Assembly (NCBI RefSeq): GCF_964194155.1
Contig: NC_135901.1
Coordinates: 28,024,001-28,088,000, forward strand
Source: Cetorhinus maximus
Taxonomy: Eukaryota
DNA: 64,000 nucleotides
Reading direction: 5' to 3'
The notes beneath the pieces are model-generated. The model was given only the letters and a program-made list of their open reading frames with translations, ran no database searches and was not told where the DNA came from. The number at the start of each line of letters is the position of its first letter. The stretch's first letter is position 1. Positions 1 through 62,879 of the stretch are shown here, in pieces. The translations under genes were made by a program, and so were the position numbers.

Positions 1-640
1 AGAGTCTGAAACCTCCTGGATTCACTTCCTTTCCCTTCAGTTCCTGCAAGTCAACAATTTGCCCCCAGAATGAGAAAAGAAATGGAAAGGGGGAGAAAAG
101 AGTGTTTTACTCACAGATGTTGGACACAGGAGGATGTTTTAGTCTGTGTAACGCTCGGTCTTCATTCACACCAAGCCCGCGCTCTGGTTGGCTGGAGGAC
201 CAGGTCCTTTTTGTCCTCCAACTCTCCCCATTGGTCACTCCCTCAACGTGAAGGTTACGGGGGGGTGGGGTGGGGGCTGTCACCCGCACATGCACAGCTT
301 TCCCTCTCCCTTGAACATTCGCAGTCCCGGGACGCCCGTCCGCGCAGCAGATAGAGTGCTTTCCCCAGCGCGGGACATTGTGGAAGCTGCGGCCGCCATT
401 ACCCATCCGGAGCCCAGTCTCCAAACCCCTGACACTGAGATGGAAAGTGGGGGTGGGGGGGTGCAGTGACCTCACCCTGACACAAAGTACATGTGGGTAG
501 TCACTGGATTTGATTGTGACGCTCCCTTCACAAAAACAGTTTGTTAACTTCATGTGTAAAGATTTAGACACCTGGGTGACATATTGGGGAGGGCAATAGG
601 CGAGTGTGAAACTGAACCCGAGAGTCAGCACCTTGAGGAG
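1..640. promoter_or_regulatory. Bidirectional ZNF promoter core 1: leftward type-A exon 1/intron arm plus rightward type-C exon
   Basis: 1-210 matches the arm repeated at 31130-31480 and 51340-51700, with a minus-strand donor (actcac 109-114). 300-640 is the reverse complement of 20260-20600 and 58860-59200. YY1-like gccgccatt near 392. Confidence 0.6.
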
Positions 641-1279
641 AGGAGAATTAGATAAAAGGCAAGAGGGGTAGGATGAATATGGGTGAGACAAAAATGAAAA
701 TAGAAAGCGCTGGAGACACTCAACAGGGATGGAATCATGTGTGGAGAGAGAAACGGAGTTAACATTTCGAGTAGAATATGACTCTCCTTCTGTAACGGTG
801 TAGACTCCTGGGTGACATATTGGGGAGGGCAATAGGTAATGGAGGAGGTCTTATGGAGCAGTGGGTGGTGCCCCTGCCTCTGAGCCAGAAGCTTCTGGTT
901 CAAGTCCGACTCCAGGACTTGATGGCCAAGGAAAGTGTCTTCAAAATGCAGACAAACAGGTTTAGTATCAACTTGTAAAACCTTCGAACACACACCAATG
1001 GCAAGCAGTAAGAGGAGTGGGAGGGCGGGGGAGATTCCTGCTCAGCCGCACGATGGAAAGAAATTGGAACCTCAGCTATCACTATCAGAGCAACTCCCAC
1101 TCCTCGGGGGGCTGGTTGGCTCAGTCGCCTGGAAGGTGGGTATATATCAGATTGGTGCCAACAACCTGTTCTGGCTGGGGTGGATTCGGGATCTGCCTCC
1201 TTGCCCTACCTCTGGTGGAGGTCGTGGCGCAGTGGGTCAGGCCTGTCTGCGCAGAGAACTCAAGAAGGAGGAAAAGGAT

Positions 1280-1620
1280 TCACTCTCTCATCGAGCTCGA
1301 TTACATACCAGGGAGAGGCCGTTCACCTACTCCATATGTGGGAATGGATTGACTCAGTCCTACTGGCATGTTCAGACTGGAGATAGGCTGATTAAATGTT
1401 CCAAGTGTGAGAGGGGATTCATTTGCTCATCCCACTTCCTAACACACAAATGAGTACATGTTTGATTGCAGGGGCTGGATTCTGCTGTTACTGCTGCTGC
1501 TCATCACATCCAGGACTGAACCATGTTTATTCTGACAATTGGGGTCTGTTTCTGCTGATGTTAATAACCCCTGTAACTGGGTTGCAGTTTAATATTCTGG
1601 ATAAATGTCAAATAAATCAG
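1280..1620 (+). pseudogene. Decayed C2H2 ZNF 3' remnant with family 3' UTR
   Basis: Translates as [13 protein letters not shown]...KCSKCERGFICSSHFLTHK*, followed by ggattctgctgtt...cacatccaggactgaaccatg and AATAAA near 1611. Confidence 0.65.
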
Positions 1621-2454
1621 CTTTGTTTTGGACACACAGTTTCTCAAGTGCTTGATGTCTCTGAGAGAAGAAAACGTAGGTTTTAAGCAGAGTCTTAAAG
1701 GAGGAGAGAGAAGTGGAGGGGTTAAGGGAGGGAATTCCAGAGTTTGGAACTTGGCAGCTGAAGACTGGAAGAGTGTCAGCCCTGGATTATGGGGGACTCG
1801 AGTCTCTGGAGTGGGGACTTGAACCCACGACCTTCAGACTCAGAGGCGAGTGTATGAGACTGACTGAGCCCTGGTATTCGGGGAAGTGATGTGAAGTCTC
1901 AGTTGCCTCATCCTTTCTCTGTCCTTTTCCCCTTTCCAGGATCAGCACATCGAGCTGAGAAACTGGGCAACAATTAAAAGGGGCAAGAAGAAAGTTAAGA
2001 GAATAAATTTCTTCACCCAGAGAATGTGGAACTCTCTGCCACAGGGAGTGGTTAAGGGGAATAGTATAGATATCTGTAAAGGTAAGCTGGATAAACACAT
2101 GAGGAAGAAAGGTGGGAGGAGGCTCGTGTACAGTATGAATGACCTGGACTGAATGTTTCTGTGCTGTACATTGTGTATGAAGAACTTGTATCATGCAACA
2201 TCCTCCAGCCCCTCAGCCAATGAAATACTTTTTTAAGATGAGGCATTTCAGCCTCTTTTAGTGAAGGTCAAGTCGAGCATTTTTAACATATGAACCATTC
2301 TCAAGTTTAGGTTAAGGATCTTACTGCACAAACAGCCACACTTATAAATATAGAACTAGCTCAGAATCAGAGGAGAGTGGGCAAAGACCAGGAAATGGTC
2401 AAACTAAAACCTACCCAGAATGCAGCAAGATGGACTGAGAAAGGTGACGCTGAG

Positions 2455-2740: not shown

Positions 2741-3789
2741 CTGAAGGAGTTGCATAAGTATGGACAATGTGTCTGCTGCCCATGTCATCTGAGGTGGTAG
2801 AGGTTGTATTTGGAAGGTGCTGTCAAAGGATCGTGGCAAGTTGCTACAGTGTATCTTGTAGATGGTACACACTGCAACCACAGTGTATCAATGGTAGAGG
2901 GAGCGCATGTTTAAGGTGGTCGGTGGGGTGCCAATCAAGTGGGCTGCTTTGTCCTGGATGAAACAAACTCTCCAATGTGAAAAGACTGGCTGATAAATCA
3001 TCAGTGTTTTGGGAAGGCACTGGGACCCAGCAAATAATTTCAGTCCGTTTGCTCTTCAAAGTTATATTGGAACCAATCACATGAGATGTTTGTCATTGAA
3101 TTGAATGCCTTGGCTCCTCACTCGGACACCTGAATGACAAGGGGCAGTGATCGGACAATATCTGGAAGCAATGAGCTGAAATGTTCTTCTGTGAGTGAAA
3201 CTGTTTCCCTTTAACCCGGAATGGACAATGTCATAGTTAATAGCAATACCGGGCTCAATTACGTTGAATATACAGCACAGAATAAGGCCATTCAGCCCAC
3301 CCAAACCATGCCAGTTTCACTTGAGAATCCTCCCATCCTTTCTCATCTCACTCTATCAGTGAATCCTTCTGTTCATTTCTCCCCCATGTGTTTACCCAGC
3401 TTCCCTTCAAATGTATCTATGTTATTCACCTCCACCACTCCCTGTGGTAGCGAGTTCCACATTCTCACCACTCTCTGGTAAAGAAGTTTCTCCCGAATTT
3501 CTGATTAGATTTATCAGTCACTATCTTATGTTGATGGCCCCTAGTTTTGCTCTTCCCCCTACAAGAGGAAACATTCTCTGTGTCTATCAAAACCTTTCAG
3601 AATTATAAAAACCTCCATTAGCCCTCAGCCTTGTCTTTCCAAGAGAGAAGTGACCCAGCCTATTCATCATCTCCGGATCAGTTATTCCTATGCTATAAAC
3701 TTCTGTGTCCCAGACATCCCCTCCCACTATTAATTTTAACCCTTATTCATCCTACTATCCTCCTCCTGCCTTTTATCTAATTCTCCTCT

Positions 3790-4100
3790 CCTCAAGGTGC
3801 TGACTCTCGGGTTCAGTTCCATACTCACCTATTACCCTCCCCAATATGTCACCCAGGTGTCTAAATCTTTACACCTGAAGTTAACAAACTGTTTTGCTAA
3901 GGGGACGTCACAGTCAAATCCAGTCACTACCCACATGTACTTTGTGTCAGGGTGGGGTCACTGCGGCCTCCACCCCTACTTTTCATCCCAGTCCCAGGAG
4001 TTTGGAGACTCGGCTCCAGATGAGTAATGGCAGCCATAGCTCCCACAATGCCCCGCGCTGAGAAACAGCACTATCCACCACGCGGGCGGGCGGTCCAGGT
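3790..4100 (-). promoter_or_regulatory. Orphan type-C exon 1/promoter half
   Basis: Colinear with 20260-20580 and 58860-59180. Minus-strand donor (ctcacctatt) near 3825. Confidence 0.5.
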
Positions 4101-4859
4101 CTATATATATCCATTCGGCCCATCATAGCCCTGGCATCTCTTTGAAAGGACTCTCTGATTCATCCAACTGCTCTGCTCTTTCCCCACAGCCCTGAAAATT
4201 CTTCCCTTTCAAGTATTTACCCTTTGGAACGGTACGATTGAATCTGCTTTCAGGCAGATCAGAACAAGTCACTGTGTCAAAAAATAAAATCTCATCTCCC
4301 CCACTGGCTCTTTTGCCAATTACCTTAGAGGGACTCACTTTCTGTTAAAGAGCCTGCCAACCCCTCTCACCTACTTTCCCTAAAGTGCAGAAATCTAATC
4401 ATGAAAAGTCCAGAAAAATCAAATATTTTTACTAACAAAAGTTTATTAATGAAACAGAACATGGTTAGAAAACATAAAATTACTTGAGGATCAAAGACAA
4501 CCAGAGTTAAAGGATGTGCACAATGTTCTGGACCCAAATGGTTTCTTTGCGGCTCCCCTGTACTCTGTTCCCGTGACTCCCCACTTTGGACACAGGGGCA
4601 CTGAACCCCGGGGGTCCCATCGGCCCCTCCTGAGCCCCGAGGTGCAAGATTTCCTGGGCATCCTTCCATTCGCTTTTGTATAATTGAGCTGTCAAAATTT
4701 CTTTAAATCTCACGACTGTGGATTCCTCAGCTCAAGCTTGAGTCTCACTGCCTTCTTGCTCTGACTGTGACCAGACAGACTGCATTCCTCCAGCCTGCTC
4801 CCACAGCTTCCTGACCGCTCTTTCCAAGGTAACTGTTCAAGCTGACCAACTTGGCTGCT

Positions 4860-5945
4860 GAAATACTCGATGCATTGACTGGAATGGCTTTTGAGACAGT
4901 AGGTGCATTGGTTGCAATTTTGCAAAATTCCCCAGATTCTGGAAATGTCTGGAAAGGCAACTCAAGTATTCAAGAAAGGAGGGACAAAGGAGGAAACTTA
5001 GTTAGCCTCATATCTGTCATAGGGAAAATGTTATATTATATTAATAAGGAGGTTATAGCTGGGCAGTAAGAAAATCAGAATACAATCAGGCAGAGTCAAC
5101 ATGGTTTTGTGAAAGAGAAATTGTGTTCAGCTCATGTATTAGCGTTCTTTGAGGAAGTAAGAAGGAAGGTGGATAAAGGGGAACATGCAGATGCAGTGTA
5201 CTTGGATTTCCAAAAGGCATCTGATATGGGTGCAACACCAAATGTTACTACACAAAATAAGAGTTTCTGGTACTGGGGATAAGATATTAGCTTGGGCAGA
5301 GGATTGGTTAGATAACAGGAAGCAGAGTAGGGACAAATGGGTCATTTCTGGGTTGGTAAGCTCTAACCAGTGGATTGCCACAGGGTTCAGTGCTGGTCTC
5401 TCAACTATTTACAATCTATCTCATTGGCTTGGATGAAGGGGCTGACTCACAAAGATAGGTAGGAGTGTAAGCTGTAAAGAGGACACGAATCTACAAGGGG
5501 ATACAGAAAGGTTAAGTGAGTGGGAAAACTTTTGGCAGATGGAGTACAATGTGGGAAAATGTGAACTTGTCCACTTTAGCAGGAAGAATAGAAAAGCTGG
5601 AGAGAGATTACAGAACTGTGTGGTACAGAGGGATCTGGGTGCCCTGAATCTCAAACGTTATGATGCAGGTACAGCAAGTGATTAGGAAGGCCAATGGAAT
5701 GTTGTTTTTTATTGCACAGAGAATGGAATATAAAAGTAGGGACAGTTTGCTACTGCTGGACAGGTCCTTGGTGAGACCACATCTGGAATACTGTGTACAG
5801 TTTTGGTCTCCTTACTTAAGAAAGGGTATAATTGGATGAGAAGTAGTTCAGAGGGTTCACTTGACTGATTCCTGGGTTGTCTCATGAGGAAAGGTTAAAC
5901 GGGTTGGGTCTGTATCCATTGGAGTTTAGAAGAATGAGATGGATG
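4860..5945 (+). mobile_element. Degenerate CR1 LINE ORF2 fragment
   Basis: Remnants of SQHGF, YLDFQKA, QMEYNVGKC and [13 protein letters not shown] motifs, with frameshifts. Confidence 0.85.
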
Positions 5946-5986
5946 TGATTGACAGCAGCACTAACAACACAAATCCAACCCCGTAA

Positions 5987-7100
5987 TCACTTGTGAACTC
6001 ACTGGTGTGTGAACAGATGGGATAACCGAGTGAATCCCTTCCCACACTCAGAGCAGGTGAATGGCCTCTCCCCAGTGTGAACTCGCTCGTGCATCAGCAG
6101 GTTGGATGAGTGAGTGAATCCCTTCCCACACTTGGAGCAGATGAACGGCCTCTCCCCAATGTGAACTCGCTGGTGTGACAGGAGGTTGGATGAATCAGTA
6201 AATCCCTTCCCACACTCAGAGCAGGTGAATGGCCTCTCCCCAGTGTGAACTCGCTCGTGCATCAGCAGGTTGGATGAGTGAGTGAATCCCTTCCCACACT
6301 TGGAGCAGATGAACGGTCTCTCCCCAATGTGAACTCGCTGGTGTGACAGGAGGTTGGATAAATCAGTAAATCCCTTCCCACACTCAGAGCAGGTGAATGG
6401 TTTCTCCCCAGTGTGAACACGCTGGTTTCTCTGCAGGTTGGGTAACTGAGTGAATCCCTACCCACATGCAGAGCAGGTGAATGGCCTCTCCCCGGTGTGA
6501 ACTCGCAAGTGTTTCTGCAGGGTGGATGAATCAGTGAATCCCTTCCCACACTCGGAGCAGGTGAAGGGCTTCTCCCTGGTGTGAACACGCAAGTGTTTCA
6601 GAAGGGTGGATGAATCAGTGAATCCCTTCCCACACTCGGAGCAGGTGAAGGGCTTCTCCCTGGTGTGAACACGCAAGTGTTTCAGAAGGGTAGATGAATC
6701 AGTGAATCCCTTCCCACACTCGGAGCAGGTGAATGGCCTCTCCCCGGTGTGACTGCGTCGATGAGTTTCCAGCTGACATGGGTAACTGACTTCCTTCCCA
6801 CAATCCCCACATTTCCACGGTTTCTCCATGCTGTGGGTATCCTTGTGTCTCTCCAGGATCGACGATCAGTAGAACCCTCCTCCACACACAGAACACATGT
6901 ACGGTCTCTCCCTGCTGTGAATGGTGTGATTTTTTTTTAGACTGTCTAACTGGTTGAAGCTCCTTCCACAGTCAGTGCACTGGAACACTCTCACTTGGGT
7001 GTGTGTGTCTCAGTGCGTTTCCAGTCACACTGATGTTTGAGGCAAACAAAACAAACATTTCTCCTTCTAGATTCAAAGGCTGATAATATTCATGTCCCGG
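5987..7100 (-). pseudogene. C2H2 ZNF paralogue A (about 10 finger repeats; TAG after finger 4; exon 1 lost)
   Basis: ORFs 6458..6829 ([12 protein letters not shown]) and 5999..6262. TAG at 6458-6460 and TGA at 5999-6001. Leader cut by a Penelope-like element; 3' UTR cut by CR1. Confidence 0.85.
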
Positions 7101-7124
7101 TGAATCGAATGACAGGGAGGTTTT

Positions 7125-8240
7125 GGTCACCCAGTTTATGCTTGGTCTCTCCAATGTAGAGGAGACCGCATTGGGAGCAACGAGTGCAGTAGACTAAGGG
7201 GAAATGCAAGTGAAATGCTGCTTCACTTGAAAGGAGTTTTGGGCCCTTGGACGGTGAGGAGAGGGGAAGTGAAGGGGCAGGTGTTGCATCTTCTGCGTGG
7301 GCGTGGGGAGGTGCCATAGGTGGGGGTTGAGGAGTAGGGGGTGATGGAGGAGTGGACCAGGGTGTCCTGGAGGGTACGATCCCTACGGAATGCCGCCGGG
7401 GGGGGGTGAAGGGAAGATGTGTTTGGTGGTGGCATCATGCTGGAGTTGGCGAAAATGGCGGAGGATGATCCTTTGAATGCGGAGGCTGGTGGGGTGATAA
7501 ATGAGGACAAGGGGGACCCTATCATGTTTCTGGGAGGGAGGAGAAGGCGTGAGGGCGGATACGCGGGAGATGGGCCGGACACGGTTGAGGGCCCTGTCAA
7601 CGACCGTGGGTGGAAAACCTCGGTTAAGGAAGAAGCAGGACATGTCAGAGGAACTGTTTTTGAAGGTAGCATCATCAGAACAGATGCGACGGAGGTGAAG
7701 GAACTGAGAGAATGGGATGGAGTCCTTACAGGAAGCGGGGTGTGAGGAGCTGTAGTTTTTTGTTTTTTCCAATAATTTATATATATTTTTCTTTTCCCAC
7801 CTATTTCCAATATTTTTAAATCTATCCCTGTGATGCCCTGTCAGTCTTTCCACCCCACCCCCACTAGAGCTGTACCTTGAGTGTCCTGCCATCCATTCTT
7901 AATTAGCACATTCTCTTCGATAATATCACCACCTTTAACACCTCTTTGTTCCTTTGTCTGTGACATCTTTTGATTATCTGCTCCTATCACTGCTTGCTTG
8001 TTCCTACAACCACCCCCCCCAACCCCCCAACTTCTTCTCCCCCCCCACCCCCCCTCCCCCACACCTTAAACCAGCTTATATTTCACCCCTCTCCTAATTT
8101 TACTCAGTTCTGTTGAAGGGTCATGAGGACTCGAAACGTCAACTGTTTTCTTCTCCGCCGATGCTGCCAGACTTGCTGAGTTTTTCCAGGTTATTCTGTT
8201 TTTGTTTTGGATTTCCAGCATCTGCAGTAGTTTTTTGTTT
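7125..8240 (-). mobile_element. Penelope-like element fragment (RT C-terminus/linker plus GIY-YIG) with an oppositely oriented terminal repeat at 7770-8240
   Basis: SSSHPASCKDSIPFSQFLHLRRICS, AFRRDRTLQDTLVHS, RRCNTCP, VYCTRCSQCGLLYIGETK. Hammerhead-like motif at 8110-8143. Confidence 0.9.
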
Positions 8241-8249
8241 TTATCGCCG

Positions 8250-8760
8250 TCATCCGGTTGCCTGGAAACCTTGACTCGAGGAGGTGGAGGGGGAGGGGGA
8301 GGGGAAACGGGAACAATGGGTGGGGGCGGGGGCGGGGCTCCCGTGTCCGCGCGCCTAGCCTACAGACTGGAACCCGAGGACGTCACCGCGGAGTAGAGTG
8401 ATTCCTATTGGCTGATTCAGGCAGGGGTCCTTTCTAGACGTCACAATGCGGAAGTTGGACAATGAGCTTCAGACTAAAACTTCCTCCTCTGGGCAACATC
8501 TGTGAGGAAATCAATGTTTCCCCTTTCCATTTCTTTTCTCATTCTGGGGGCAAATTGTTGACTTGCAGGAACTGAAGGGAAAGGAAGTGAATCCAGGGAG
8601 GGTGCAGACTTTGGTAAGGCTGGCCCAGGTCTCTCTCTCTCTCTTAAAGACACTTTGCTCCCTCAGCTTGACACATTTATTTGTCTGGCTAAAATGATGG
8701 CCTCTTTCCTCATGTTCACAATTAAAGGGGTGGTTTCCCCAGGAGATGGCTGACATTCCC
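8250..8760 (+). promoter_or_regulatory. Promoter core 2, type-B exon 1 and intron start of ZNF paralogue B
   Basis: GC boxes (ggggcgggg), two gacgtca sites, attgg, gcggaagt, donor gtgagg at 8502. Matches 31620-32120. Confidence 0.7.
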
Positions 8761-11783: not shown

Positions 11784-13610
11784 GATATGTGTATTTACAG
11801 TGGAAGATTTGCAGACATAAATCTCAAACCAAACGTCACATCAAGATCTGCCAAACTCATTTGATTAAATGGGACCTGAATATCATTGGTTCTTTGAACC
11901 AAGCAGGGGAAATGTTTGTCTGTTCTGTCTGCTTCAAAAGGTTTTAAGCCTCAGTGTGACTGGAAAAACACCGAGACACACATACCCAAGTGAGAGTGTT
12001 CCAGTGCACTGACTGTGGAAAGAGCTTTGACCGGTTACACAGCCTGAAAAAACATCACCATTCACAGCGAGGAGAGACTTATACATGTTCTGTGTGTGGA
12101 CAAGGCTTCAACTGATCGTCGGACCTGGAGAGACACAAGGGCACGAGCACCATGGATAAACCGTGGGAATGTGGGGACTGTGGGAAGGGATTCTGTTCCC
12201 CATCTCAGCTGGAAACTCATCGACGCAGTCACACCGGGGAGAGGCCGTTCATCTGTTCTGACTGTGGGAAGGGATTCACAGCCCCATATCAGCTGGAAAC
12301 TCATCGACGCAGTCACACTGGGGAGAGGCTGTTGACCTGCCCTGACTATGGGAAGAGTTTCACTCAGTTCTCCCGCCTGCAGAGGCACCAGTGAGTTCTC
12401 ACCGGGAAGTGGCCATTCACCTGCACTGAGTATGGCAAGATATTCAGACAGTTACCCAGCCTGCAGTCACACCATCGATTTCACACTGGGGAGAAGATGC
12501 CATTCCTCTGCTCTGTATGTGCAAAGGGATTCCCCCACTCATCCAGCCTGCTGACACACCAGCGAATTCACACTGGGGAGAGGCCATTCACCTACTCTGA
12601 ATGTGGGAAGGGATTCGGTAATTCATCTGACCTGCAGACACACAAAGGAGTTCACACTGGGGAGAGACCGTTCACCTGCTTTGAGTGCGGAAAAGGATTC
12701 AGTGATTCATTCAACCTGCTGCGACACCAGAGAATTCACATTGGGGAGAGGCCGTTCACCTGTTCCGAGTGTGGCAAGGGATTCACTCAATTATCCAATC
12801 TGCAATCACACCAGCGAGTTCACACCGGGGAGAGACCATTCACCTGCTTTGAATGTGGGAAGAGATTCAGTAATTCATCCGACCTGCAAAAACACAAACG
12901 AGTTCACACCAGGGAGAGGCAGTTCCGCTGCTCTGACTGTGGAAAGGGATTCAGCCATTCATTGAACCTGCTAACCCACCAGCGAGTTCACACCAGGGAG
13001 AGGCCGTTCACCTGCTCTGAATGTGGGAAGGGATTCACTCAGTTATCCAACCTGCTGACCCACCAGCGAGTTCACACCAGGGAGAGGCTGTTCACCTGCT
13101 CTGAGTGTGGGAAAGGATTCAGTGATTCATCCAACCTGCTGCGACATCAGCAAGTTAACACCGGGGAGAGGCCATTCACCTGCTCTGAGTGTGGGAAGAG
13201 ATCCAATCATTCATCCAGCCTGCAAAAACACCAGCGAGTTCACACTGGGCAGAGGCCATCCACCTGCTCCCTGTGTGGGAGGTGATTCACTCATTCATCC
13301 CACTAGCTAAGACACCAGCGAGTTCACAAGTGATTACAGGGGTTGGATTCTGCTGTTGTTGCTGCTGTTAATCACATCCAGGACTGAACCATGTTCATTG
13401 TGACACTTGGTGAAGTGGGAGGGTTGGAGGGTTCCTTCCTGCTGGACTGGCCGGTCTCATGACTTTGCTTCCAGTGGGCTGATGCTCTTTGAGCCTAGAA
13501 GTGCACATTTCCACTGAAATGATCCACAAAAGCTGATGAAGGACATTTATTTTGTTCTGGACAGTAAATAGTGTTTTTCCTACCACAACAGGTAGATCTG
13601 AAATAAATAC
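11784..13610 (+). pseudogene. C2H2 ZNF paralogue B exon 2 (about 14 finger repeats, disrupted)
   Basis: Acceptor tttacag at 11783; ATG at 12152; TGA at 12392-12394 and degenerate fingers; ORF 12497..13285 with about 9 fingers; family 3' UTR follows. Confidence 0.8.
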
Positions 13611-13614
13611 AGGA

Positions 13615-21803: not shown

Positions 21804-23120
<1,317 letters not shown>

Positions 23121-41750: not shown

Positions 41751-41933
41751 GGGACAGTAAATTGATATATGACTCGTGTCGTTACAAGATGCATATTTTA
41801 TATTTGTGTGGGACGGAGAATGACAGTTTTTACGGAACAAAAAAGGAAATAATGTTCCACAGTAATCAGAAATGCCTGCTCTGAATTTCTATCCTATACT
41901 GACAGTGATGCATTTTGTAAACTCCTTTTACAG

Positions 41934-43100: not shown

Positions 43101-44234
43101 TCTCAGTTCCATTGAGTCTACAGCACAGGGCCAGGCCAGCCGGCTCAATTGGTCTGTGTCAGTATTTAAGCTCCACATTAGCCTCCACTCACCCCTCTTC
43201 ATTTCCCCCCACCAGCATATCCTTCTATTCCTTTCTCCCTCATGTATGTATTTAGCTTCCCCTTAAATGTATTCATGCTGTTCACCTCAACCACTCGCTG
43301 TGGGAGCGAGTTCCCCACACTCACCATTCGCTGGGTAAAGAGGTTTCTCATGAAATCCCGATTGGATTATTGAACCCCTTCATCATCTTAAAGACTTCCA
43401 TCAGGTCACCCTTCAGTCTTCTCTTTTCTAGATAAAAGCAGCCCCAGCCTTTCCTAAGGGTTAAATGCTCTCATTTCTGGTATTATTCTTGTGAATCTTT
43501 GTTGCTTCTTCTCCAGTGCCTCTATTCCCTTTTTCTAAATGGAGATCAAAGATGTTGACAGTACTCCCAGTGTAGTCTAACCATGGTTCAAAAAAAAAGT
43601 TGGACATAACCTCCCTGCTTTTCAACTCTATCCCTCAAGAATGGAATCCAATATCTGGGCCCCACACTTTAGGAAAGATGTGAAGTTCTTAGAGAGGGTG
43701 CAGAGGAGATTTACGAGAATGGCACCAGGGATGAGGGACTTCAGTTAGTTGGAGAGACTGGAGCAGCTGAAATTGTTCTTTTTAGATCACAGAGTCATTA
43801 GGGTAGAGAAGGAGTCCATTCAGCCCATCGTGTCCATGCCAGCTCACTGCAGAGCAAACCAGTCAGTCCCATTGCCTCGTTCTATCCCTGTCCCCCTGAA
43901 AATTTATTTTCTTCAACTGCCCATCCAATTTCTTTTTGAAACCGTTCATTGTCTCTGCTTCCACCCCCCTCGTAGACAGCGAGTTCCAGGTCATTACCAC
44001 TCACTGTGTAAAAATGTTCCTCCTCAAATCACCCCCATACCTTTTCATTTTCATTCTTTCATGGATTTGGGTGTCACTGGCTGGGCCAGCATTTATTGCC
44101 CATCCCTAATTGCCCTTAAGAAGGTGGTGCTGAGCTGCCTTCTTGAACCGCTGCAGTCCATGTGGTGTAAGTACACCCACAGTGCTGTAGGGGAGGAATT
44201 CCAGGATTTGACCCAGCGACAGTGAAGAAATACC

Positions 44235-50621: not shown

Positions 50622-51339
50622 CTGCAAAAGGAGTTTACTGTCAGTACAGGATAGAAATTCAGAATCGATAATTCTAGTTTCTATGAAACATTCTTTCCTC
50701 TCCTGTTCCCCAAAACCTGTAAATCTCTGTCCCACACACTCTCCCTCCAATCTCACTCTGCTGTACCCAATATACAACCTCCCAATTCTCTTGAAAGTGC
50801 AAATTCATCCCGATTGGCAGATCCATGTTCAGCACTGTTAGTCCAGCAAACAGAGCTGTGAGCCATATGGATGAACACATTAGAGGAGTTCAAATGTTGT
50901 AATGTAATATAACATGCATTGCATGATTAGAGGTATGGGGGGATGCAAGAAACAACATTATTTAGGAGTGAGTGATCATGACCTGAAATTCAGTGTGTCT
51001 GTGGATGGTGGAACTGGAGATGATCATTGATTTCAGAATGAAATTCGATGGACACTTGATGGAAATACACTTGCAGGGGAACGGGGATATCAAAGGGGAA
51101 TGGGACTGACTGGATTCTTCCACAGAGAGTTGGCATGAACTTGAGTTGTCGAATTAACTCCTTCTGTGCAGTAATGACCCTCTGACTGGAAATATATACA
51201 CAGCTACAGTCTTATACTACAAAACTGGAAAGGATAATAAATGAATTTAATTACAGGACTACAAATAATATATCTAAACTGTTCCCTATCATAACATTAG
51301 ACATATCTCTGTCCTTTATTAATTTACTGGCCCCTTAAA

Positions 51340-52340
51340 TGTCAGCCATCTCCTGGGGAAACCACTCCTTTAATTGTGAACATTAGGAAAGAGACCATTC
51401 TTTTAGCCAGACAAATAAATGTGTCAATCTGAGGGAGCAAAGGATGTCAATGTCTTTAAGAGAGAGAGAGAGAGAGACCTGGGCCAACCTTTCCAGAGTC
51501 TGCACCCTCCCTGGATTCACTTCCTTTCCCTTCAATTCCTGCAAGTTAACAATTTCCCCCCAGAATGAAACAAGAAATGGAAAGGGGGAGAAAAGAAAGT
51601 GTTTTACTCACAGATGTTGGTCACAGGAGTAAGTTTTAGTCTGTGTGAAGCTCAATCTTCATTCACACAAAGCCCGCACTCTGATTGGCTGGAGGACCAG
51701 GGGCCTTCCTCTTCTTCAACCCTTTTCATTGGTCAACCTCTCAGCATGATGGGAAGGGGGCGGGCTAAACGCCACACATGCGCAGCTTCTCCTCTCCCGT
51801 GTTCTCTGTGCGGCTTTTCGCTCTGGCCGGAGCCGCCAGCCAGTTGCCTGGAAACCTTGGCTCGAGGAGGTGGAGGGGGAAAAATGGATGGGGGCGGGGC
51901 TCCCGTGTCCGCGCGCCTGGCCTGCAGACTGGAACCCGAGGACGTCACCGCGGAGCAGAGTGATTCCTATTGGCTGATTCAGGCAGGGTTCCATTGTGGA
52001 CGTCACAATGCGGAAGTTGGACAATGAGCTTCAGACTAAAACTTCCTCCTTTGGCCAACATCTGTGAGGAAATCAATGTTTCCCCCTTTCTATTTCTTTT
52101 CTCATTCTGGGGGCAAATTATTGACTTGCAAGAACTGACAGGAAAGGAAGTGAATCCAGGGAGGGTGCAGACTCTGGAAAGGTTGGCCCAGGTCTCTCTC
52201 TCTCTCTCTCTCTTAAAGACATTGATATCCTTTGCTCCTTCAGCTTGACACATTTATTTGTCTGGCTAAAAGGATGGTCTCTTTCCTAATGTTCACAATT
52301 AAAGGGGTGGTTTCCCCAGGAGACGGCTGACATTTAAGGG
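51340..52340. promoter_or_regulatory. Bidirectional promoter core 6 with inverted arms (type A left, type B right)
   Basis: Direct copy of 31130-32120; donors at 51606-51611 (-) and 52064 (+). Confidence 0.8.
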
Positions 52341-53297
52341 GACAGTAAAATAATACAGGGCAGAGATTTGTCTAGTGTTGTTTTATGGTACATATTAAAT
52401 GTTCTATTTCCACTTCTCTAATAAAATATATGTGTTATTATTTCTAGCCCTGTAATATAGTGCCACAGCTATGTTACATATTTCCAGTCATAGAGTCATT
52501 ACAGCCCTGAAGGAATCCATTTGGCAATTCAAGTCCTTGTCCACTCTCTGTAGAGCAATCTGGTCAGTCCTGTTCCCTATCTATATCCCTGTTCCCCTGC
52601 AGGTTTAATTCCTTCAAGTTCATTTTGAAACCACTGATTGTCTCCACTTCCACCAGTCAATGAGTTCTCGGTCTAGCGGCCTGCACGAAGATTTTCAGGA
52701 CTCTGTGTTCTGCACAAGAACCACTATTTGTGGATCAGCATGAATCGGCACCTTCAGGAGAATTGGGAGGGTGTATATTAGGTACAGCAGAGCGAGAATG
52801 GAGGGAGAGTGTGTGGGGCAGAGATTTACAGCTTTTGGTCAATGAGAGAGGAAAGAATGTGCCATAGAAACTAGAATTGTCTGTTCTGAATTTCTATCCT
52901 GTACTGACAATGATGACTTTTGTAAACTTCTTTTATAGGATATTAGAAGGGGAAGATTTGCAAACAGAAATCTCAAACCAAACATCACGTCAAGATCTGA
53001 CCGAGTTGGTCAATTCATCGGGAGCTGAATATCAATGGTCTTTGAAGCTAGAAGGAGAAATGTTTGTCTGTTCTGTCTGCTTCAGAAGGTTTAAAAATCA
53101 ATGTTATTGAAAAAGCACTGAGACACACACACCCGAATGAGAGTGTTCCAGTGTACTGACTTTGGAAGGAGCTTTAACCAGTTACGCAGCCTGAAAAAGC
53201 ATCCCCATTTACTGCAGCGGGAGGGGCTGTACACATGCTCTGTGTGTGGACCACTCAGTTGATCATGAATCTTAAGAGACCCAAGGACACCTGCAGC

Positions 53298-54167
53298 ATG
53301 GAGAAACAATGGACATGTGGAGACTGTGGGAAGGGATTCATATCCCCATCAAAGCTGGAAATTCATCAACGCAGTCACACTGGGGAGCGGCCGTTCACCT
53401 GCCCTGTGTGTGGGAAGGGATTCACTCAGTCATCCCACTTGCAGTCACACCAGCGAGTTCACACCAGGGAGAGACCGTTCACTTGCTCTGAGTGTGGGAA
53501 GGGATTCACTCGGTCATCCCACCTGCTGAGACACCAGCGAGTTAACACCGGGGAAAGTCTGTTCACCTGCTCCATGTGTGGGAAACGGTTCACTGAGTCA
53601 TCCAGCCTGCTGAGGCATCATATTACTCACACCAATGAGAGACCCTTTAAATGCCCTGACTGTGGGAGTGGCTTCAAAAGTTCTCAGGACCTGATGTTTC
53701 ACCAGCGCATTCACACCGAGGAGAGACCATTCAGATGCCCTCACTGCACAAAGAGATTTAGAAGGTCATCCAACCTGTGGGAACACCAGCAGGTCCACAC
53801 CAGTGAGAGGCCATTCACCTGCTCTGAGTGTGGGAAAGGATTCATTCACTTGTCCAAATTGCAGATGCACCAGCGAGTTCACACGGGGGAGAGGCCGTTC
53901 ACCTGCTCTGATTGTGGAAAGGGATTCAAGGATTCATCCACCCTGCTGAGACACCAGCGAGTTCACACTGGGGAGAGGCCATTCACCTGCCCCATGTGTG
54001 GGAAGGGATTTGCTTATTTATCCAGCCAGCTGAGACACCAGCGAGCTCACAGTGGGGAGAGGCCATTCACTTGCTCTGAGTGTGGGAAGGGATTCTGTGA
54101 TTCATCGAACCTGCTGACACACCAGCATGTTCACACCAGGGAGAGGCTGCTCACCTGCTTTGAGTGA
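53298..54167 (+). CDS. Tandem C2H2 zinc-finger protein I, 10 fingers (one His to Asn); 11th cut by TGA
   Basis: ORF from [14 protein letters not shown]; acceptor at 52938; ancestral stop near 54222; family 3' UTR. Confidence 0.85.
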
Positions 54168-57100
54168 GGGAAGGGATTCACTCAGTCATCCAGCCTACTG
54201 AGACACCAGCGAGTTCACAAGTGATTCCAGGGGTTGGATTATGCTGTTATTGCTGCTGTTAATTACATCCAGGACTGAACCATGTTCATTCTGACACTTG
54301 GTGAAGTGGGAGGGTTGGAGGGTTTCTTTCTGCTGGACTGGCCGGTCTCACGTCTTTGCTTCCAGTGGCTGATGCTCTTTGAGCCTGGGAGTGCACATTT
54401 CCACTGAAATGATCCACAAAAACTGATGAAGGACATTTATTTTATCCTGGATAGTAAATAGTGTTTTTCCTACCACTACAGGTAGATCTAAAATAAATAC
54501 ATTTGTCTCTGTTCCATTGAGTCTCAGGGCTGGAGAGAGGATTTATGAGAATGGAACCAGGGATGATGGACTTCAGTTAATTGGAGAGACTGGAGCAGCT
54601 GAAATTTCTGTCTTTAGATCATAGAATCATTAGGTTGGACACGGGACCATCATGTTCCTGACTGTAGAAGTCCTGTAGAGCAAACCAGTCAGTCTCATTG
54701 CCCTGCTGTATCCCCGTAACTCTGTAGGTCTATCTCCCTCATGTGGTCATCCAGCTTCCTTTAGAAACCATTCCCTCATCTCTGCTTCTACCACCCTCAT
54801 AGGAAGTGGGTTCCAGGTCATTACCACCCGCTTGAAATGTACACGCATCTCATAGACACAGAAGGAGGCTATTCTGCCAGTCTTGCTCCTTTGAAATAAA
54901 TACCCAATTAATCCCATTGCTCTGCAATTTTCTTTTCCTTTCAAGATTCTGTCCAGTTCCCTTTTGAAAGATACAGTCAAAACTGCTTCTCGCACTGTTT
55001 TCAGGCAGTACATTCCAAATCACGACAACTCGCTGTGTTTTCAAACAAATCATTCAGGATATAGTGTGTGTGGATTTTCACGGAGTATACGAAAACGTGT
55101 CAAAGGCATGTTATTTCCACTAGTAATTACAGAGTCTTAATTTTATGATTTTGATGAGGGGACCGAGTGTCATGTATCATATTCGTGGACAACTGAAAAA
55201 AATTCCATTTCTCTAGCACCTCTCGCTAGCACAAGAACCCCGAAGCATCTTACAGCTGATGCAGTGCCTTTGAAGTGGAGTCACTGTTGTCATGTAAGAA
55301 ACTGTAGGTGTGCCTGTGAAGTTGAATTTTGTTTTAAAACTCAATCACTTTCATACTGTATTCACTGTTATAAGTAACAAAGTCAAGGAAACCGTCTTAA
55401 TTTAACATCTGGCTTCTTGCTTGGTTTAACAGTCTGTAACTTTTCTTCCTTAACTATATATTGATCTTGGATTAAAAGCTAGTTATGAAACATCTAATTA
55501 TTAAGTAATCAACCCCTTGATTATTTGATCCTGAGTTCTGTAAAACACAAAGCACGGTACGCAACATTAGATGTGATTCTGCGATTGGACATTTGCTAAA
55601 CAATGCTGACAACTAATTTAGGATTATCAGTTGAGCTCACAGTGTAGTGCACTTATGTGTTCTAAAAGCTACGCATATTAATACGCAGAGCCCTCTTATT
55701 TGCAGACAAGAAGAACATGTACACACATTCACCTGTTTCAACTGAATAAAATAGGCAACAGCCATACTCTGGTTCATTCACCATGGCAATTCCTTGACCA
55801 AACAGAGTCAATCTGCCTGGTTTGAATTTAAACAACTCTTGGCAGTTGGCTATCAGTCATCAGTCCAATGGTGCATTCTCCCTGTCAATTCCTCTACCAA
55901 TCAAAGTCCATTTCGCCAACCAATCAGCACTTTCTTCTCATGAAGTATTAATTGTTGTTCCCTTTGCATTTGGCATTCTTGCAAATGCTCTGATGAGTGC
56001 AAGATGAAAAGCTTCAACATGTCTCTTCTGCAATTACTGTTATAAATAACTACCAGCCAGGAACAAATGACTGAATAAGTAGTGAGCCTTAATTGAGTTA
56101 CAATTAATGAATCAATAATGAATCAGTAGTTATAGTAAAGACAGAGTTTTATTTGCTGTAAGAATGTAAAAGCTTAATTGCTGTGTATGTAAAGAATGTG
56201 CAATTGAAGATAAATGTACTGGCAAGAGAGACCTTCAAGCTCTCATTATCCTCAAAGTTTGAATCTCTATGAATAAGGGATGGTATAGAATAAGATAAAG
56301 GCATAATAGGAAACAGTTCTGTTGTATTCTTGTCTAAGATAATGAGAGAAGGTGGTATAAGTAATTGGGGAACCAATTTAAATTAATCTAGTAACCAACT
56401 GACCAATTGTCATGTTACAACTGGCCCAACTCTGACGTGAGGTAATGGTTACTTTGGGGATAAAAGTAGAGGTTCTGAAGGTCTTCCTTGCTAGCCAAGT
56501 ACTGACTCCCGAGGCCGAGTTCCAAGGAAATTACTGTCAAAGAAGGAGCCAGACTCCCGAGGGTGAATTCCACAACAATTACTGTCAAAGAAGGAGCCAG
56601 AGAGGGTTACGCTTCTACAGACTGATCACCTGCATGAAGTTGTAAAAATCAATGTCTTAAAGTTGTTAAGTAAACCTTTTTCTTTTAATAAACTTCTTTT
56701 AAATTTACTACCAGACAATTTTGCCTTTGCCTTAACTGGTTAAAGTCTTGTCTAAATCAAAGTTAATTCATTAAATGGCAAGTGTAGGTGACTGAAATCA
56801 ATTATGTAACAGAGAACAAGATCAGATAATATCAATCTTAAATTTTAGTAATTGCATTTATATAGCGTCTTTCACGACCACATGATGTCCCAAAGTGCTT
56901 TACAGTCAATGAGGTAATTTCAAAGTGCAGTCACTGTTGTAATGTGGGAAACGTGGCAGATTTACACACAGCAAGATCCCACAAACAGCAATGTGACACT
57001 GACCAGATAATCTGTTCTTAGTGATGTTAATTGATAAAAATCGGCCAGGACACTGGGGATAACTCCCCTGCTCAACTTCGAAATAGTGGCCCCGGGAAGT

Positions 57101-57769: not shown

Positions 57770-58200
57770 GTATTGTGTACAGTTCTGTGCACCACACTTT
57801 TGGAAAGATGTGAACACATTGGAGAGAGTACGGAAGAGGTTTACAAGGATGGTTCCAGGGATGAGAAACTTCAGCTATGAAGATAGATTGGTGAAGTTGG
57901 GACTGTTATCCTTGGAGTGGAGAAGGCTAAGAAGAGATTTGATTGAAGTGTTAATGAGGGGTGTCATGAGGGGTCTGGACAGAGTAGATAGGGAGAAACT
58001 GTCCCTGCTCATAAAAGGATCGAGAACAAGAGGGCACAGATTGAAAGTGATTTGCAAAAGAAGCAAATGTGATGTGAGAAAAAAGCTTTTTCACACAATG
58101 AGTGGTACAGGTCTGGAATGCTCTGTCTGGAAGTGTGATGGAGGCAGGTTCAATCGAGACATTCAAGAGGGCATTAAATGATTATTTGAACAGAAACAGT
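57770..58200 (+). mobile_element. CR1 LINE 3' fragment
   Basis: ORF 57726..58181 YCVQFCAPHF...RFTRMVPG. Confidence 0.85.
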
Positions 58201-58720
58201 GTGAAGTCGCTGATGGGTCAGTCAGCTGATTGAATCTGTAAACCACTTTCCACATGGAACGGGTGAATGGCCTCTCCCTCTCCTCAGTGTGAAGTCACTG
58301 ATGGGTCAGTCAGCTGATAGAACCTGTAAACCGCTTCCCACCTGGAGCAGGTGAATGGCTGTTCCTCAGTGTGAACACGTATCCAACTCAGATGGGGATC
58401 AGAATCCCTTTGCACTGTCCCAATATTGCCACGGTTTTTCTGGAATAGATGTGTCCTTGAGTCTGTCCAGTTGGATGATCAGTTTAAGCCTTGACAAGAC
58501 ACCAACCATGGATCATTGATATCTTTTCCAACAGACAGAAGAGTGAACTATTTCTCTTTCTAGGTTCAAAAACCAATGATATTCAGAAACTGATGAATCG
58601 AGTGACTGTCAGATTTTGATGTATTATCTGTTTTGAGTTTCCTGTCTCTAAATCCTCCCTCTCCAATACACTGTAAGGGGAGTTTACAAAGAAATCACTC
58701 TAACGACAGGATCGAAATTC
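58200..58720 (-). pseudogene. Heavily decayed ZNF paralogue (left partner of J)
   Basis: Reverse-complement matches to the exon-2 leader (58545-58670) and finger remnants (gagcaggtgaatggc). Confidence 0.6.
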
Positions 58721-58859
58721 AGAACTGACAATCCTGGTTATCAACAAACATCCTTCTCCCATTCAAACTATGAATCTCTGCCCGACACACTCCTTCCTCT
58801 CTATTGATTGAAATACTAGTTCATCCTACTATCCTCCTCCCACTTTCCCCCAATTCTCC

Positions 58860-59715
58860 TCCTCTGAAGGTGCAGACTCTCGGGTTCAGTTTCACACTCA
58901 CCTATTGCCCTCCCCAATATGTCACCCAGGTGTCCAAATCTTTACACCTGAAGTTAACAAACTGTTTTGCTAAGGGGGCGTCACAATCAAATCCAGTGAC
59001 TACCAACATGTACTTTGTGTCAGGGCGGGGTCACTCCGGCCCCCGACCCCACTTTCCATCCCAGTCCCAGGAGTTTGGAGACTGGGCTCCGGATGAGTAA
59101 TGGCGGCCGAAGATCCCACAATCCACAGCGTTGGGGAAACCGCTCTATCCGCCGCGGCAGCGGGAGGCCCGGGACTGCGCATGTCCAGGAAAGAGGGGAC
59201 AACTGCGCATGTGCGGAGAGTGGCGTTTGGCCTGCCGCTCAACTCACCGTGGGGGGTCAGAGGGTCTCCCGCGTCCGCGAAGGCTTCCGCTGCCCCATTG
59301 TCTTTATGCGGGAGATTGACCAATGGGGAGAACTGGAGGGCAGGAAGGACTCTGGTCCTCCAGCCAATCAGAGCGCGGGCTTTGTGTGAATGAAGAGTGA
59401 GCTTCACACAGTCTAAAATTTCCTCCTGTGTCCAACATCTGTGAGTAAAACACTTTCTTTTCTTCCCCTTTCCATTTCTTTTCTCATTCTGGGGGGAAAT
59501 TGTTAACTTGCAGGAACTGAAGGGAAAGGAAGTGAATCCAGGGAGGGTGCAGACTCTGGAAAGGTTGGCCCAGGTCTCTCTCTCTCTCTCTTAAAGACAT
59601 TGACATCCTTTGCTCCCTCAGCTTGACACATTTATTTGTCTGGCTAAAAGGATGGTCTCTTTCCTAATGTTCACAGTTAAAGGGGTGGTTTCCCCAGGAG
59701 ATGGCTGACATTTAA
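58860..59715. promoter_or_regulatory. Bidirectional promoter core 7 (type C left, type A right)
   Basis: CpG-rich; two tgcgcatg sites, aatggcggc, two CCAAT boxes; donors near 58897 (-) and at 59441 (+). Confidence 0.75.
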
Positions 59716-59947
59716 AGGAACAATAAATTAGTATTGGACATAGCTCTGTCTAGTGTTGTTTTATGGTACATATTAGATATATTATTGATGGTTCTAGAAT
59801 TAAATACATTTATTATTATTTCTAGTCTTATAATATAGCAATGTAACTACGTTATATATTTCCAGTTGTAGAGTCATTACGGCACTGATTGAGTCCATTC
59901 GGAAACTTGAGTCCATGCCGACTCTCTGTAGAGTACGCCAGTCAGTC

Positions 59948-60665
59948 TAGTAAACCTTCTCTGAACTGCTTCCAATGGAAGTATATACCCCCTTAAAGAA
60001 GGAGGCCAGAACTGCACACAGTACTCTAGGTGTGGTCTCACCGATATCCTGTGCAGCTACAGGAAGACTTCCCTACTTTTATACTCCATCTCCCTTGCAA
60101 TAACGGCCGACATTCCAGTTGCCTTTCTCATTACTTGCTGTACCTGCAGACTGACTTTTTGTGATTAGTGTCCAAGGACACCCAGATCCCTCTGTACTGC
60201 AGCATTCTGCAGTCTCCCTCAATTAAATAATGCTCTACTTTTCTATTCTTCCTGCCAAAGTGGACAATCTCACATTTTCACACATTATATTCCATCTTCC
60301 AATATTTTTCTCCCTCACTAAACCTATTGCTATCCCTTTATGGACTCTTTGTATCCTCCTCACAACTTGCTTTCCTATCTATCGTTGTATCATTGGCAAA
60401 TTTGGCTACAATACAGTCAATTCCTTCATCCAAGTCATTGATATGAATTGTAAATAGATGGGGCCCCAGGACTGATCCCTGCAGGACTGTGGAGCCTCAG
60501 TCATTAAATATATTCAAGACAGAGAGTGATATATTTCTAGATATTGAAGATATCAAGGGATATTTGGGATAGTGCGAGAAAATGGTGCCGAGGTAGATCA
60601 GCCTTGATCTCATTGAATGGCCGAGCAGGCTCAATGGGCCGACTGGTCTACTCCTGTTCCTATTT
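59948..60665. mobile_element. CR1 fragments in the intron of J (59948-60482 minus, then a plus-strand 3' end)
   Basis: Reverse complement resembles 5400-5850; the second piece is a CR1-type 3' tail. Confidence 0.7.
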
Positions 60666-61268
60666 CTTATGATATCTGTGTCCTGGACAGGAAGCAGTGA
60701 GAGTAGATCTGTCGATCAGCATGAACCTTCAGGAGAATTGGGAGGGTGTATGTTAGGTACAGCAGAGTGAGAATGTAGAGAGAGAGAGTGTCTTTGGAGA
60801 AATGAGAGAGGAAAGAATGCTCCATACAAACGAGAATTGTCTGTTCTGAACTTCTATCCTGTACTGACAATGATGCCTGTTGTGAATTCCTTTTACAGGA
60901 TACGAGAAGGGGAGAAGATTTACAGACAGAAATCTGAAATCAAAGGTTAAGATCTCACATAGTCACTCAATTTATCAGAACCTGAATATGATCAGCTTTT
61001 GAATTTAGAAGGAGAAATGTTTGTCTGTTCTGTCTGCTTGAAAAGATTTTAAACATCAGTGTGACTGGAAAAGCACCGAGACACACACACCCAAGTGAGA
61101 GTGTCCAAGTGCACTGACTGTGGAAAGCACTGTGGAAAGAGCTTTAACCAGTTACACAGCCTGAAAAAACATCACCATTCACAGCGGAGAGAGACCGTAC
61201 ATGTGTTCTGTGTGAGGACAAGGCTTCAACTGATCATCAAACCTGGAGAGACACAAGGACACCGAACC

Positions 61269-62444
61269 ATGGAGAAACCGTGGAAATGTGGGGACTGTGG
61301 GAAGGGATTCAAAGCCCCCTCTGAGGTGGAAACTCATCGGCGCAGTCACAATGGAGAGAGACCATTCATCTGCTCTAAGTGTGGGAAGGGATTTGCTCGG
61401 TTACAACACCTACAGTCACACCAGCGGGTTCACAATGGGGAGAGGCCATTCACCTGCTCCGTGTGTGGGAAGGGATTCACTCGGTTAACCAGCCTGAAGA
61501 CACACCAACGAGTTCACACTGGGGAGAGGCCGTTCACTTGCACCGTGTGTGGGAAGGGATTCACTCGGTTGAACAACTTGCAAACACACCAGCGAATTCA
61601 CACTGGGGAAAGGCCCTTCACCTGCTCTCACTGTGGGAAGGGATTCACTCACTTATACAACCTGCAAACACATCAGCGAATTCACAGCGGGGAGAAGCCG
61701 TTCACCTGCTCCGTGTGTGGGAAGAGATTCACTCGGTTAAACAACTTGCAGACGCACCAGCGAATTCACACTGGGGAGAAGCCATTCACCTGCTCCGTGT
61801 GTGGGAAGGGATTCACTCGGTTAACCAGCCTGCAGACACATGAGCAAATTCATACTGGGGAGAAGCTGTTCACCTGCTCTCAGTGTGGGAAGGGATTTAC
61901 TCGGTTACCCAACCTACTCACTCATCAGCGAGTTCACACCGGGGAAAGACCATTCACCTGCTCCGTGTGTGGGAAGGGATTCACTCGGTCATCCAGCCTG
62001 CTGACACACCAGCGGGTTCACACTGAGAGGCCGGTCACCTGCTCTGAGTGTGGGAAAGGATTCACTGAGTTCTGCAGACTGCAGGCACACCAGCGAATTC
62101 ACACCGGGGAGAGGCTGTTCACCTGTTCTGATTGTGGGAAGGGATTCACTTGGTTATCCCAGCTGCGGACACACCAGCGAACTCACACTGGGGAGAGGCC
62201 GTTCACTTGCTCTGACTGTGGAAAGGGATTCACTCAGTCATTCAACCTGTTGCTGCACCAGCGACTTCACACTGGGGCGAGGCCGTTTACCTGCCCTCAA
62301 TGTGCGATTGGATTCACTCAGTCATCCCACCTGCTGAGGCACCAGCGAGTTCACACTGGGGAGAGGCCATTCACCTGCTCTGAGTGTGGGAAGAGTTTCA
62401 CTCAGTCATCCCACCTGCAGACACACCAGCGAGTTCACAGATGA
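61269..62444 (+). CDS. Tandem C2H2 zinc-finger protein J, 14 fingers, no effector domain seen
   Basis: Intact ORF from accATGg ([14 protein letters not shown]); acceptor at 60898. Confidence 0.92.
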   Translation: MEKPWKCGDCGKGFKAPSEVETHRRSHNGERPFICSKCGKGFARLQHLQSHQRVHNGERPFTCSVCGKGFTRLTSLKTHQRVHTGERPFTCTVCGKGFTRLNNLQTHQRIHTGERPFTCSHCGKGFTHLYNLQTHQRIHSGEKPFTCSVCGKRFTRLNNLQTHQRIHTGEKPFTCSVCGKGFTRLTSLQTHEQIHTGEKLFTCSQCGKGFTRLPNLLTHQRVHTGERPFTCSVCGKGFTRSSSLLTHQRVHTERPVTCSECGKGFTEFCRLQAHQRIHTGERLFTCSDCGKGFTWLSQLRTHQRTHTGERPFTCSDCGKGFTQSFNLLLHQRLHTGARPFTCPQCAIGFTQSSHLLRHQRVHTGERPFTCSECGKSFTQSSHLQTHQRVHR

Positions 62445-62879
62445 TTGCAGGGTTTGGATTCTGCTGTTGTTGCTGCTGTTAATCACATCCAGGACTGAAC
62501 CATATTCATTCTGACACTTGGTGAAGTGGGAGGGTCGGAGGGTTTCTTTCTGCTGGACTGACCAGTCCCACGACTTTGCCCCAGTGGCTGATGCTCTTTG
62601 AGCCTTGTTGCGAATATCTAGTTTCATATTTCACAAAGATCACAGAATGAAAGGGTGTTTGGAATGTAAAATATATTTGGTTTGCATTTCTTTTTGGAAC
62701 CACCCAAAGCATGCCAGGTTGCCATGGAGACGGGTTGTGCTGGTTGGATGATTCTTTTCTATAATTTATCTGGGTGCTCCTCACAGAAGAAAACTATCAC
62801 AGTGTGAGGGTCAAGCTGGCTGTGGTAGATTGGGAAATTACATGAAAAGTTATGACGGTAGACAGGCAATAGCTAACAT

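Follow-up and report, generated by a model that had tools for sequence, protein, structure and literature searches.

Zinc-finger-only genes of Cetorhinus maximus arrayed back to back around a shared CpG-rich promoter module

The 64,000-nucleotide stretch of Cetorhinus maximus DNA analysed here (the window; NC_135901.1 of assembly GCF_964194155.1, positions 28,024,001 to 28,088,000) lies at 28.02-28.09 Mb of contig C24 in a 3.99-Gb genome, and is a slice of a multi-megabase array of zinc-finger-only genes, many of them back to back. We consider it probable that this is a lineage-specific array of finger-only C2H2 zinc-finger (ZNF) genes with a CpG-rich promoter in common, and that segmental duplication and ectopic recombination at the promoter module enlarged it, keeping the back-to-back register while partners were reshuffled.

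The seven CpG-rich cores that a first-pass annotation had located in the window are present at the positions it gave (c1 to c7, from left to right; Table 1), with a GC content of 0.55-0.60 against 0.45 for the whole window, and a CpG observed/expected ratio of 0.52-0.73 against 0.32. Its strand layout also holds, with fingers or their remnants on the minus strand to the left of the cores and on the plus strand to the right. All seven are related, as it stated, but they are not equivalent, falling into two types that have only one half in common: two are full type A cores (c4, c6), two are type A cores in which a repeat insertion has displaced one side (c2, c5), and three (c1, c3, c7) are type B, with another second half and a decayed partner. 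No window core has two intact genes; an intact open reading frame (ORF) is found in two of the ten window genes with a detected acceptor, one beside c4 and one beside c7. Self-comparison of the window, proposed in the same annotation, recovered the repeated modules, namely the arm, the two alternative second halves, an acceptor-plus-leader block and a block in the 3' untranslated region (UTR). The arm, of about 280-330 bp, forms an inverted pair flanking the full cores (86% alike at c4). The first-exon donors of c4 are separated by 461 bp and those of c6 by 453 bp, and the CpG ratios of these two cores are 0.69 and 0.57; such closely spaced divergent first exons (under 1 kb) in CpG-rich sequence are the layout of a bidirectional promoter.

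The cores carry short words that resemble sites for NF-Y, NRF1, Sp1/GC-box, CRE, ETS, YY1 and ZNF143 factors. The original motif list mixes the two types. Leaving aside cores with large insertions, CCAAT words are in all 47 type A and all 36 type B cores and the NRF1-like word is in 38/47 and 31/36, while the CRE-like word marks type A (44/47, against 9/36 of type B) and the YY1-like word type B (23/36, against 1/47 of type A). A donor-like site is retained on the B side in 20 of the 36 type B cores. The c3 core has a mirrored copy of its CCAAT half at 20606-20830, as do five of the 36 in all, which suggests that the ancestral promoter was palindromic and was trimmed later. The B-side first exon (301-680, 20251-20605, 58820-59216) is about 85% alike among copies despite its dead ZNF gene, and may be promoter sequence or the exon of a non-coding RNA.

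Beyond the window we sampled five stretches of C24 totalling 1.264 Mb, which hold 171 finger arrays and 109 cores. The periodic head-to-head arrangement is real: core spacing has a median of 10.4 kb (coefficient of variation 0.46), and 127 of 166 adjacent arrays alternate in strand (binomial p 2e-12). In a 140-kb control stretch at 25.5 Mb of C24, which has the same gene family and none of these promoter modules, alternation is 8/16 (Fisher p 0.033 for the comparison). Nine cores near stretch ends were excluded and the other 100 classified as 52 type A, 35 type B and 13 partial or mixed. Finger arrays stand on both sides of 44/52 type A cores and of 0/35 type B cores, because the type B partner is dead; its remnant persists at 14 of the 35. 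The best 40 of 721 candidate matches to the c4 core all fall within 26.95-31.33 Mb of C24 (top non-self identity 91%). Of the 312 exact matches to a 25-letter word of the arm, 100 were listed, and 99 of these lie from 26.75 Mb on. The motif at the start of the coding exon has 173 exact matches, of which the 100 listed span 0.75-29.1 Mb of C24; the gene family therefore extends beyond this promoter family. By extrapolation the genome would hold about 400 cores and 620 finger arrays, with 220 intact finger-only genes, over some 4.6 Mb.

At the right edge (C24:31.35-31.43 Mb) the arms vanish and divergent genes appear that branch deep in the tree, with the first finger NYPSQLE, as in sevengill and sawshark proteins. 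Elsewhere, on C24 near 0.39, 11.0, 12.96 and 15.74 Mb and also on C565, C633 and C1475, there are copies, 96-99.7% identical, of a unit that spans 78 kb or more and includes several similar cassettes; either they arose by segmental duplication very recently or some of them are duplicates made in assembly.

In every gene a short first exon without coding sequence is followed by an intron, with the conserved arm at its start, and by a single coding exon. The latter begins with a leader of roughly 360 bases, now decayed; the ATG at MEKPWKC comes next, then 3-18 fingers and the 3' UTR module. Transcription of type A cores in both directions would fit unstranded, RNA-like contigs of relatives, in which both type A first exons are spliced. 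Among the matches listed, runs X1 and X3 have the right first exon joined to the coding exon (52063 to 52940). The left first exon is joined from 51611 to its acceptor in X1 and in X8, with zero such joints in X21, and a single joint from 52344 marks a likely optional exon inside the arm; the joint positions agree with GT and AG sites in the window. Some caution is due, in that the runs are only guessed to be RNA and the contigs are unstranded and derive from paralogs in relatives; they therefore show splicing of both first-exon types, not activity of the window copies. The likely optional 5' UTR exon, at 52245-52344 and present in all arms, contains short upstream ORFs and three ATGs that are conserved in 95-105 of the 109 arms, and may tune translation.

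The leader is a decayed extension with stops and frameshifts, and no hidden in-frame N-terminal domain was found, 0/164 leaders being open as far as the acceptor. The MEKPWKC start has its ATG in 145/164, and in 137 position -3 is a purine and position +4 a G; leaders contain a median of three upstream ATGs, a point against this start, and translation from it is consequently a prediction. Birth and death of genes, as originally proposed, is borne out by the 60 intact ORFs among the 164 (a total that counts one broken locus twice). Type A genes are intact more often on the left side than on the right (29/57 vs 11/38, p 0.037), and both genes are intact in 5/38 type A cassettes.

The description of these genes as effector-less was apt: intact proteins consist of fingers only, with six residues before finger 1 in 56 of the 60 ORFs, and both intact window proteins match Pfam zf-C2H2. 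As in a poly-C2H2 expansion, there are at least three tandem C-x2-C-x12-H-x3-H fingers with a conserved linker, in clustered paralogs. Finger 1 is unlike later fingers and has an invariant proline at helix +1; the identical first-finger type occurs in proteins of sawshark, catshark, sevengill shark and skate, which makes a cartilaginous-fish lineage likely for the array. The whole-protein homology search was uninformative, matching mostly unrelated finger proteins. KRAB is absent from the best 25 families for the two intact window proteins, and a genome-wide KRAB profile search (150 of 152 candidates scored) gave a single match, on another contig, in a PRDM9-like gene.

The promoter and arm are about 95% alike regardless of gene-body distance. 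Over eight bins with flank distances of 0.03-0.28, arm distance stays at 0.038-0.055 and both promoter halves are equally flat, while the mid-intron, finger 1 and 3' UTR follow flank distance; in close pairs the 3' UTR block, unlike the arm, follows the gene tree. Non-consensus alleles shared by close pairs number 0.8 in the arm (25 pairs) against 25 in the mid-intron (24 pairs), and private arm alleles number 5.2 per copy in close pairs, as in distant ones. Typing by 13 diagnostic columns revealed mosaic arms, with left-type tracts in 12/46 right arms and right-type tracts in 0/95 left arms; c4 and its close paralog bear opposite tracts. Flat module distance together with mosaic tracts indicates ectopic recombination. 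The radius of the arm star (about 2.3%) fits the youngest wave of duplicates, whose nearest-neighbour distances cluster at 3-6%.

Several observations weigh against recombination as the whole account. Some of the 12 mosaic arms share descent, and 164/287 arm alleles are singletons; so many rare alleles are expected less from neutral conversion at a steady pace than from a sweep or from strong selection in the past. Arm columns are overdispersed, with 55/236 invariant against 18 expected, and arms lie slightly closer to their consensus in intact than in broken genes (4.9 vs 5.8 changes, p 0.033), from which a contribution of selection follows. Hairpin conversion between the arms of one cassette finds no support, arm distance being 0.049 within cassettes and 0.050 between them (p 0.38). 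We read the history of the module as recombination plus selection.

Could purifying selection alone, on a control element or the optional exon, keep promoter and arm alike, with recombination incidental? It would explain the excess of invariant columns, the retention of both acceptor AGs in 106/109 arms and of the arm ATGs, and the fact that the relatives' contigs cover the arm and scarcely the mid-intron; there is precedent in an intronic element of human ZNF genes (PMC9122532). Under selection at a constant rate, however, arm distance should rise in proportion to flank distance and close pairs should share alleles, and neither is the case; mosaic tracts require recombination, and broken genes are nearly as near to the consensus as intact ones. 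We regard selection alone as unlikely.

Duplicated blocks show how the combination of duplication and module exchange may have operated. The 185 gene-containing blocks have a median span of 5.7 kb and identities of 87-95% (87% being the preset floor), and 92 are inverted. One whole array is carried by 107 of them, none by 44, a tail-to-tail pair by 14, a head-to-head pair by 10 and three arrays by 10. Among 173 non-redundant block ends, 37 fall in promoter modules, which make up 8.3% of the DNA (2.6-fold enrichment, p 1e-7), and 31 within finger arrays (12% of the DNA). On the other side of the ledger, about half of the ends (88/173) fall outside any module, and some cassettes (nine pairs) have been duplicated whole. 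The back-to-back register would survive because block ends often fall in homologous modules. Close gene pairs are scattered: of 161, five are within 30 kb and 78 are on the same strand (sampling was patchy).

The first-pass annotation held that a compact two-gene cassette was the unit of expansion. Among 703 cassette pairs, 43 share a close gene; both partners are kept on the same sides in nine, including c6 with two paralogous cassettes, and these nine, with the ten head-to-head blocks, are what a fixed cassette would predict. In the other 34 only one partner is kept, on the same side in 26 and with sides switched in eight, and there are no clean promoter flips with both partners exchanged. 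The correlation of partner distances is weak and not significant (Mantel r 0.12, p 0.08, 38 cassettes), single-array and tail-to-tail blocks exceed head-to-head ones, left and right genes are intermixed in the tree, and type B partners are dead. An early pairwise phase could have been erased by later recombination, yet a fixed cassette as the unit of duplication now looks quite improbable, one-gene blocks dominating and partners having been reshuffled. Still more improbable is a transposon-like origin of the core, as an element by which ZNF genes were carried or seeded: its inverted arms would suit one, as would several hundred copies in a star-like set, but among the matches listed (100 of 312 for the arm word) copies are only on C24 and unplaced contigs, the arms sit at a fixed place within genes and contain their splice sites, and a palindromic origin is visible in the five type B cores with a mirrored half.

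On the reading we prefer, duplication with recombination at the module, an old inverted duplication would have given rise to the two arms. Identity among hundreds of copies would then let crossovers or conversions end inside the promoter-and-arm module, and such exchanges would homogenise the module and swap gene bodies, probably until the last burst of duplication, whose sister copies are about 4-5% divergent. Selection on promoter motifs and splice signals presumably helps to keep the module alike.

Sequences encoding the fingers evolve differently from the module. The ratio of nonsynonymous to synonymous substitution (dN/dS) at helix positions -1, 2, 3 and 6, which the annotation had singled out, can be given, and does not exceed 1. 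With CpG sites removed, the pairwise estimate is 0.92 (0.47-1.33) over the 116 finger pairs of 17 independent intact gene pairs, and for eight pairs with CpG sites kept 0.64 (0.32-0.92). The scaffold is under purifying selection, with 0.11 in the hydrophobic core and 0.39 in linkers; zinc ligands are invariant by filter in this test. Finger number is equal in only six of the 17 pairs, and the 60 intact ORFs have 59 distinct fingerprint arrays. Contact residues near neutrality fit specificity that may be diversifying on a conserved scaffold; positive selection is not demonstrated. Intact products are predicted to be DNA-binding regulators of diverse specificity which, having no known effector, would act by occupancy or via a partner, with the atypical first finger the best candidate surface. 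The annotation's analogy with transposon-responsive clusters can be taken further, to a module that is a selected exchange socket, plugging any finger array into a common bidirectional promoter and shuffling co-expressed pairs, with putative KRAB-free transposon silencing through a finger-1 co-repressor. We think this rather unlikely; if true, it would be a KRAB-free path to an adaptive zinc-finger repertoire in sharks.

The PRDM9-like gene (C34:9.11-9.12 Mb, minus strand) has a KRAB exon, SET-like exons and a homogeneous finger array that is variable at contact sites; the second cysteine is a serine in two early fingers. Another of its exons, judged by eye, we take to be SSXRD-like. SSXRD is reported to be absent in some cartilaginous fish (PMC5519329). 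The idea, taken from the same source, that recombination defaults to promoters through a partial PRDM9 is unsupported, because the single KRAB match of this genome is a PRDM9-like gene with SET-like and SSXRD-like exons and a variable array.

Table 1. Cores, exons and associated elements of the window (window coordinates; aa, amino acids).
Feature	Position	Strand	Remarks
c1 (type B): left arm, exon-1 donor 114, shared CCAAT half	1..310	-	its gene just off-window, broken
c1 B-side first exon (301-680), decayed ZNF remnant and 3' UTR piece	301..1542	+	
Orphan B-side module without promoter half	3693..4102	-	
c2 left ZNF exon	5940..7113	-	stops after finger 4 and in last finger
Repeat insertion in place of c2 left half	7115..8245	.	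partly repeated at 40765-41085 near c5
c2 right half of type A core, donor 8502, arm	8246..8757	+	
c2 right ZNF exon	11784..13611	+	ATG 12152; ORF ends after 2 fingers; 3' UTR module
c3 B-side first exon and acceptor remnant	20082..20605	-	finger array deleted
c3 (type B) core, mirrored CCAAT half, donor 20947, arm	20606..21236	+	
c3 ZNF exon	21804..23135	+	start lost (ACG), stop and frameshift, 3' UTR module
c4 left ZNF exon	29017..29799	-	ATG 29433, 84 aa, 2 complete in-frame fingers
c4 full type A core	31101..32149	.	inverted arms; donors 31395 (-), 31856 (+); right arm left/right mosaic
c4 right ZNF exon	32816..34400	+	intact ORF 33178-34104, 308 aa, 11 fingers, 3' UTR module
c5 left ZNF exon	39053..40069	-	frameshift after finger 1; arm lost
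c5 truncated type A core, reverse orientation, donor 41477, arm	41151..41773	+	
c5 right ZNF exon	41934..43116	+	start lost (ATA), 5 fingers, 3' UTR module
c6 left ZNF exon	48123..50621	-	duplicated leader; ORF broken after 35 aa
c6 full type A core	51309..52363	.	donors 51611 (-), 52064 (+); likely optional 5' UTR exon end 52344
c6 right ZNF exon	52939..54521	+	ATG 53298, 289 aa, 9 canonical fingers, stop in last finger
c7 B-side first exon and degenerate ZNF remnant	58197..59216	-	
c7 (type B) shared CCAAT half, donor 59441, arm	59306..59740	+	
c7 ZNF exon	60899..62605	+	intact ORF 61269-62444, 391 aa, 14 fingers, 3' UTR module

The insertion at c2, which removed the promoter, exon 1 and acceptor of the left gene, has no Pfam match. 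A reverse-transcriptase remnant lies within the c2 right intron (9900-11708). The 280-bp 3' UTR block recurs at 13331-13611, 22834-23135, 34101-34400, 42831-43116 and 54221-54521 with some 90% likeness between paralogs. A repeat at 23173-25948, roughly 2.8 kb long, has partial copies at 35674-37305 and 55855-57653.

The array offers a testable case of how large zinc-finger repertoires work when no effector is known, and it illustrates clearly that a promoter family can evolve in concert even as its genes diverge; the single shared promoter makes the whole family addressable in one reporter or CRISPR interference experiment. KRAB-domain families are reported to be depleted in cartilaginous fishes (PMC8455134). 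No description of the shark array was among the papers that the literature searches listed; the supplementary ZNF counts of PMC10547256 may cover sharks.

Five known systems invite comparison. (i) Mammalian KRAB-ZNF clusters (PMC11952569, PMC2604467) likewise are tandem C2H2 clusters with segmental duplication, non-allelic recombination and variable finger number. The array differs in having no KRAB exon and genes of a few kb that stand head to head; its recombination appears centred on the promoter module rather than on retroviral insertions, and positive selection on contact residues, a further difference, is not demonstrated in it. (ii) The cyprinid FiNZ-ZNF genes of zebrafish Chr 4q (PMC10547256), also lineage-specific in fish, share with it the expansion on one chromosome region and the single finger-array exon. 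They encode a 28-residue acidic N-terminal domain in an upstream exon, whereas here the first exon is non-coding and six residues precede finger 1; with exon 1 spliced directly to exon 2 and leaders closed, no place for such a domain was seen, no FiNZ profile having been run. The words head-to-head, bidirectional and shark are absent from the main text of PMC10547256. (iii) Vertebrate bidirectional CpG-island promoters, including ZNF143-bound ones of KRAB-ZNF genes (PMC3627581), also place two first exons within 1 kb of each other in CpG-rich sequence. The array departs from them in that a single promoter family recurs several hundred times between paralogs, with a large proportion of copies facing a dead partner. 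Both have CCAAT, NRF1, GC-box, ETS, YY1 and ZNF143-like words. (iv) MER57E3, found in first introns of human ZNF genes (PMC9122532), resembles the arm as an element just 3' of the start site that many ZNF paralogs share; it is a long terminal repeat relic with a tested enhancer-like function, whereas the arm holds the splice sites of an optional exon. (v) Homogenisation of promoters already has a precedent in mouse V1R genes (PMC1955453), where blocks of about 10 kb have promoter islands of more than 500 bp that are over-similar between paralogs, and gene conversion was proposed; those are receptor genes, described as single-gene blocks, and the array has back-to-back pairs with apparent partner swapping. 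Overall, the array expands and turns over like a KRAB-ZNF or FiNZ-ZNF cluster, yet belongs to neither.

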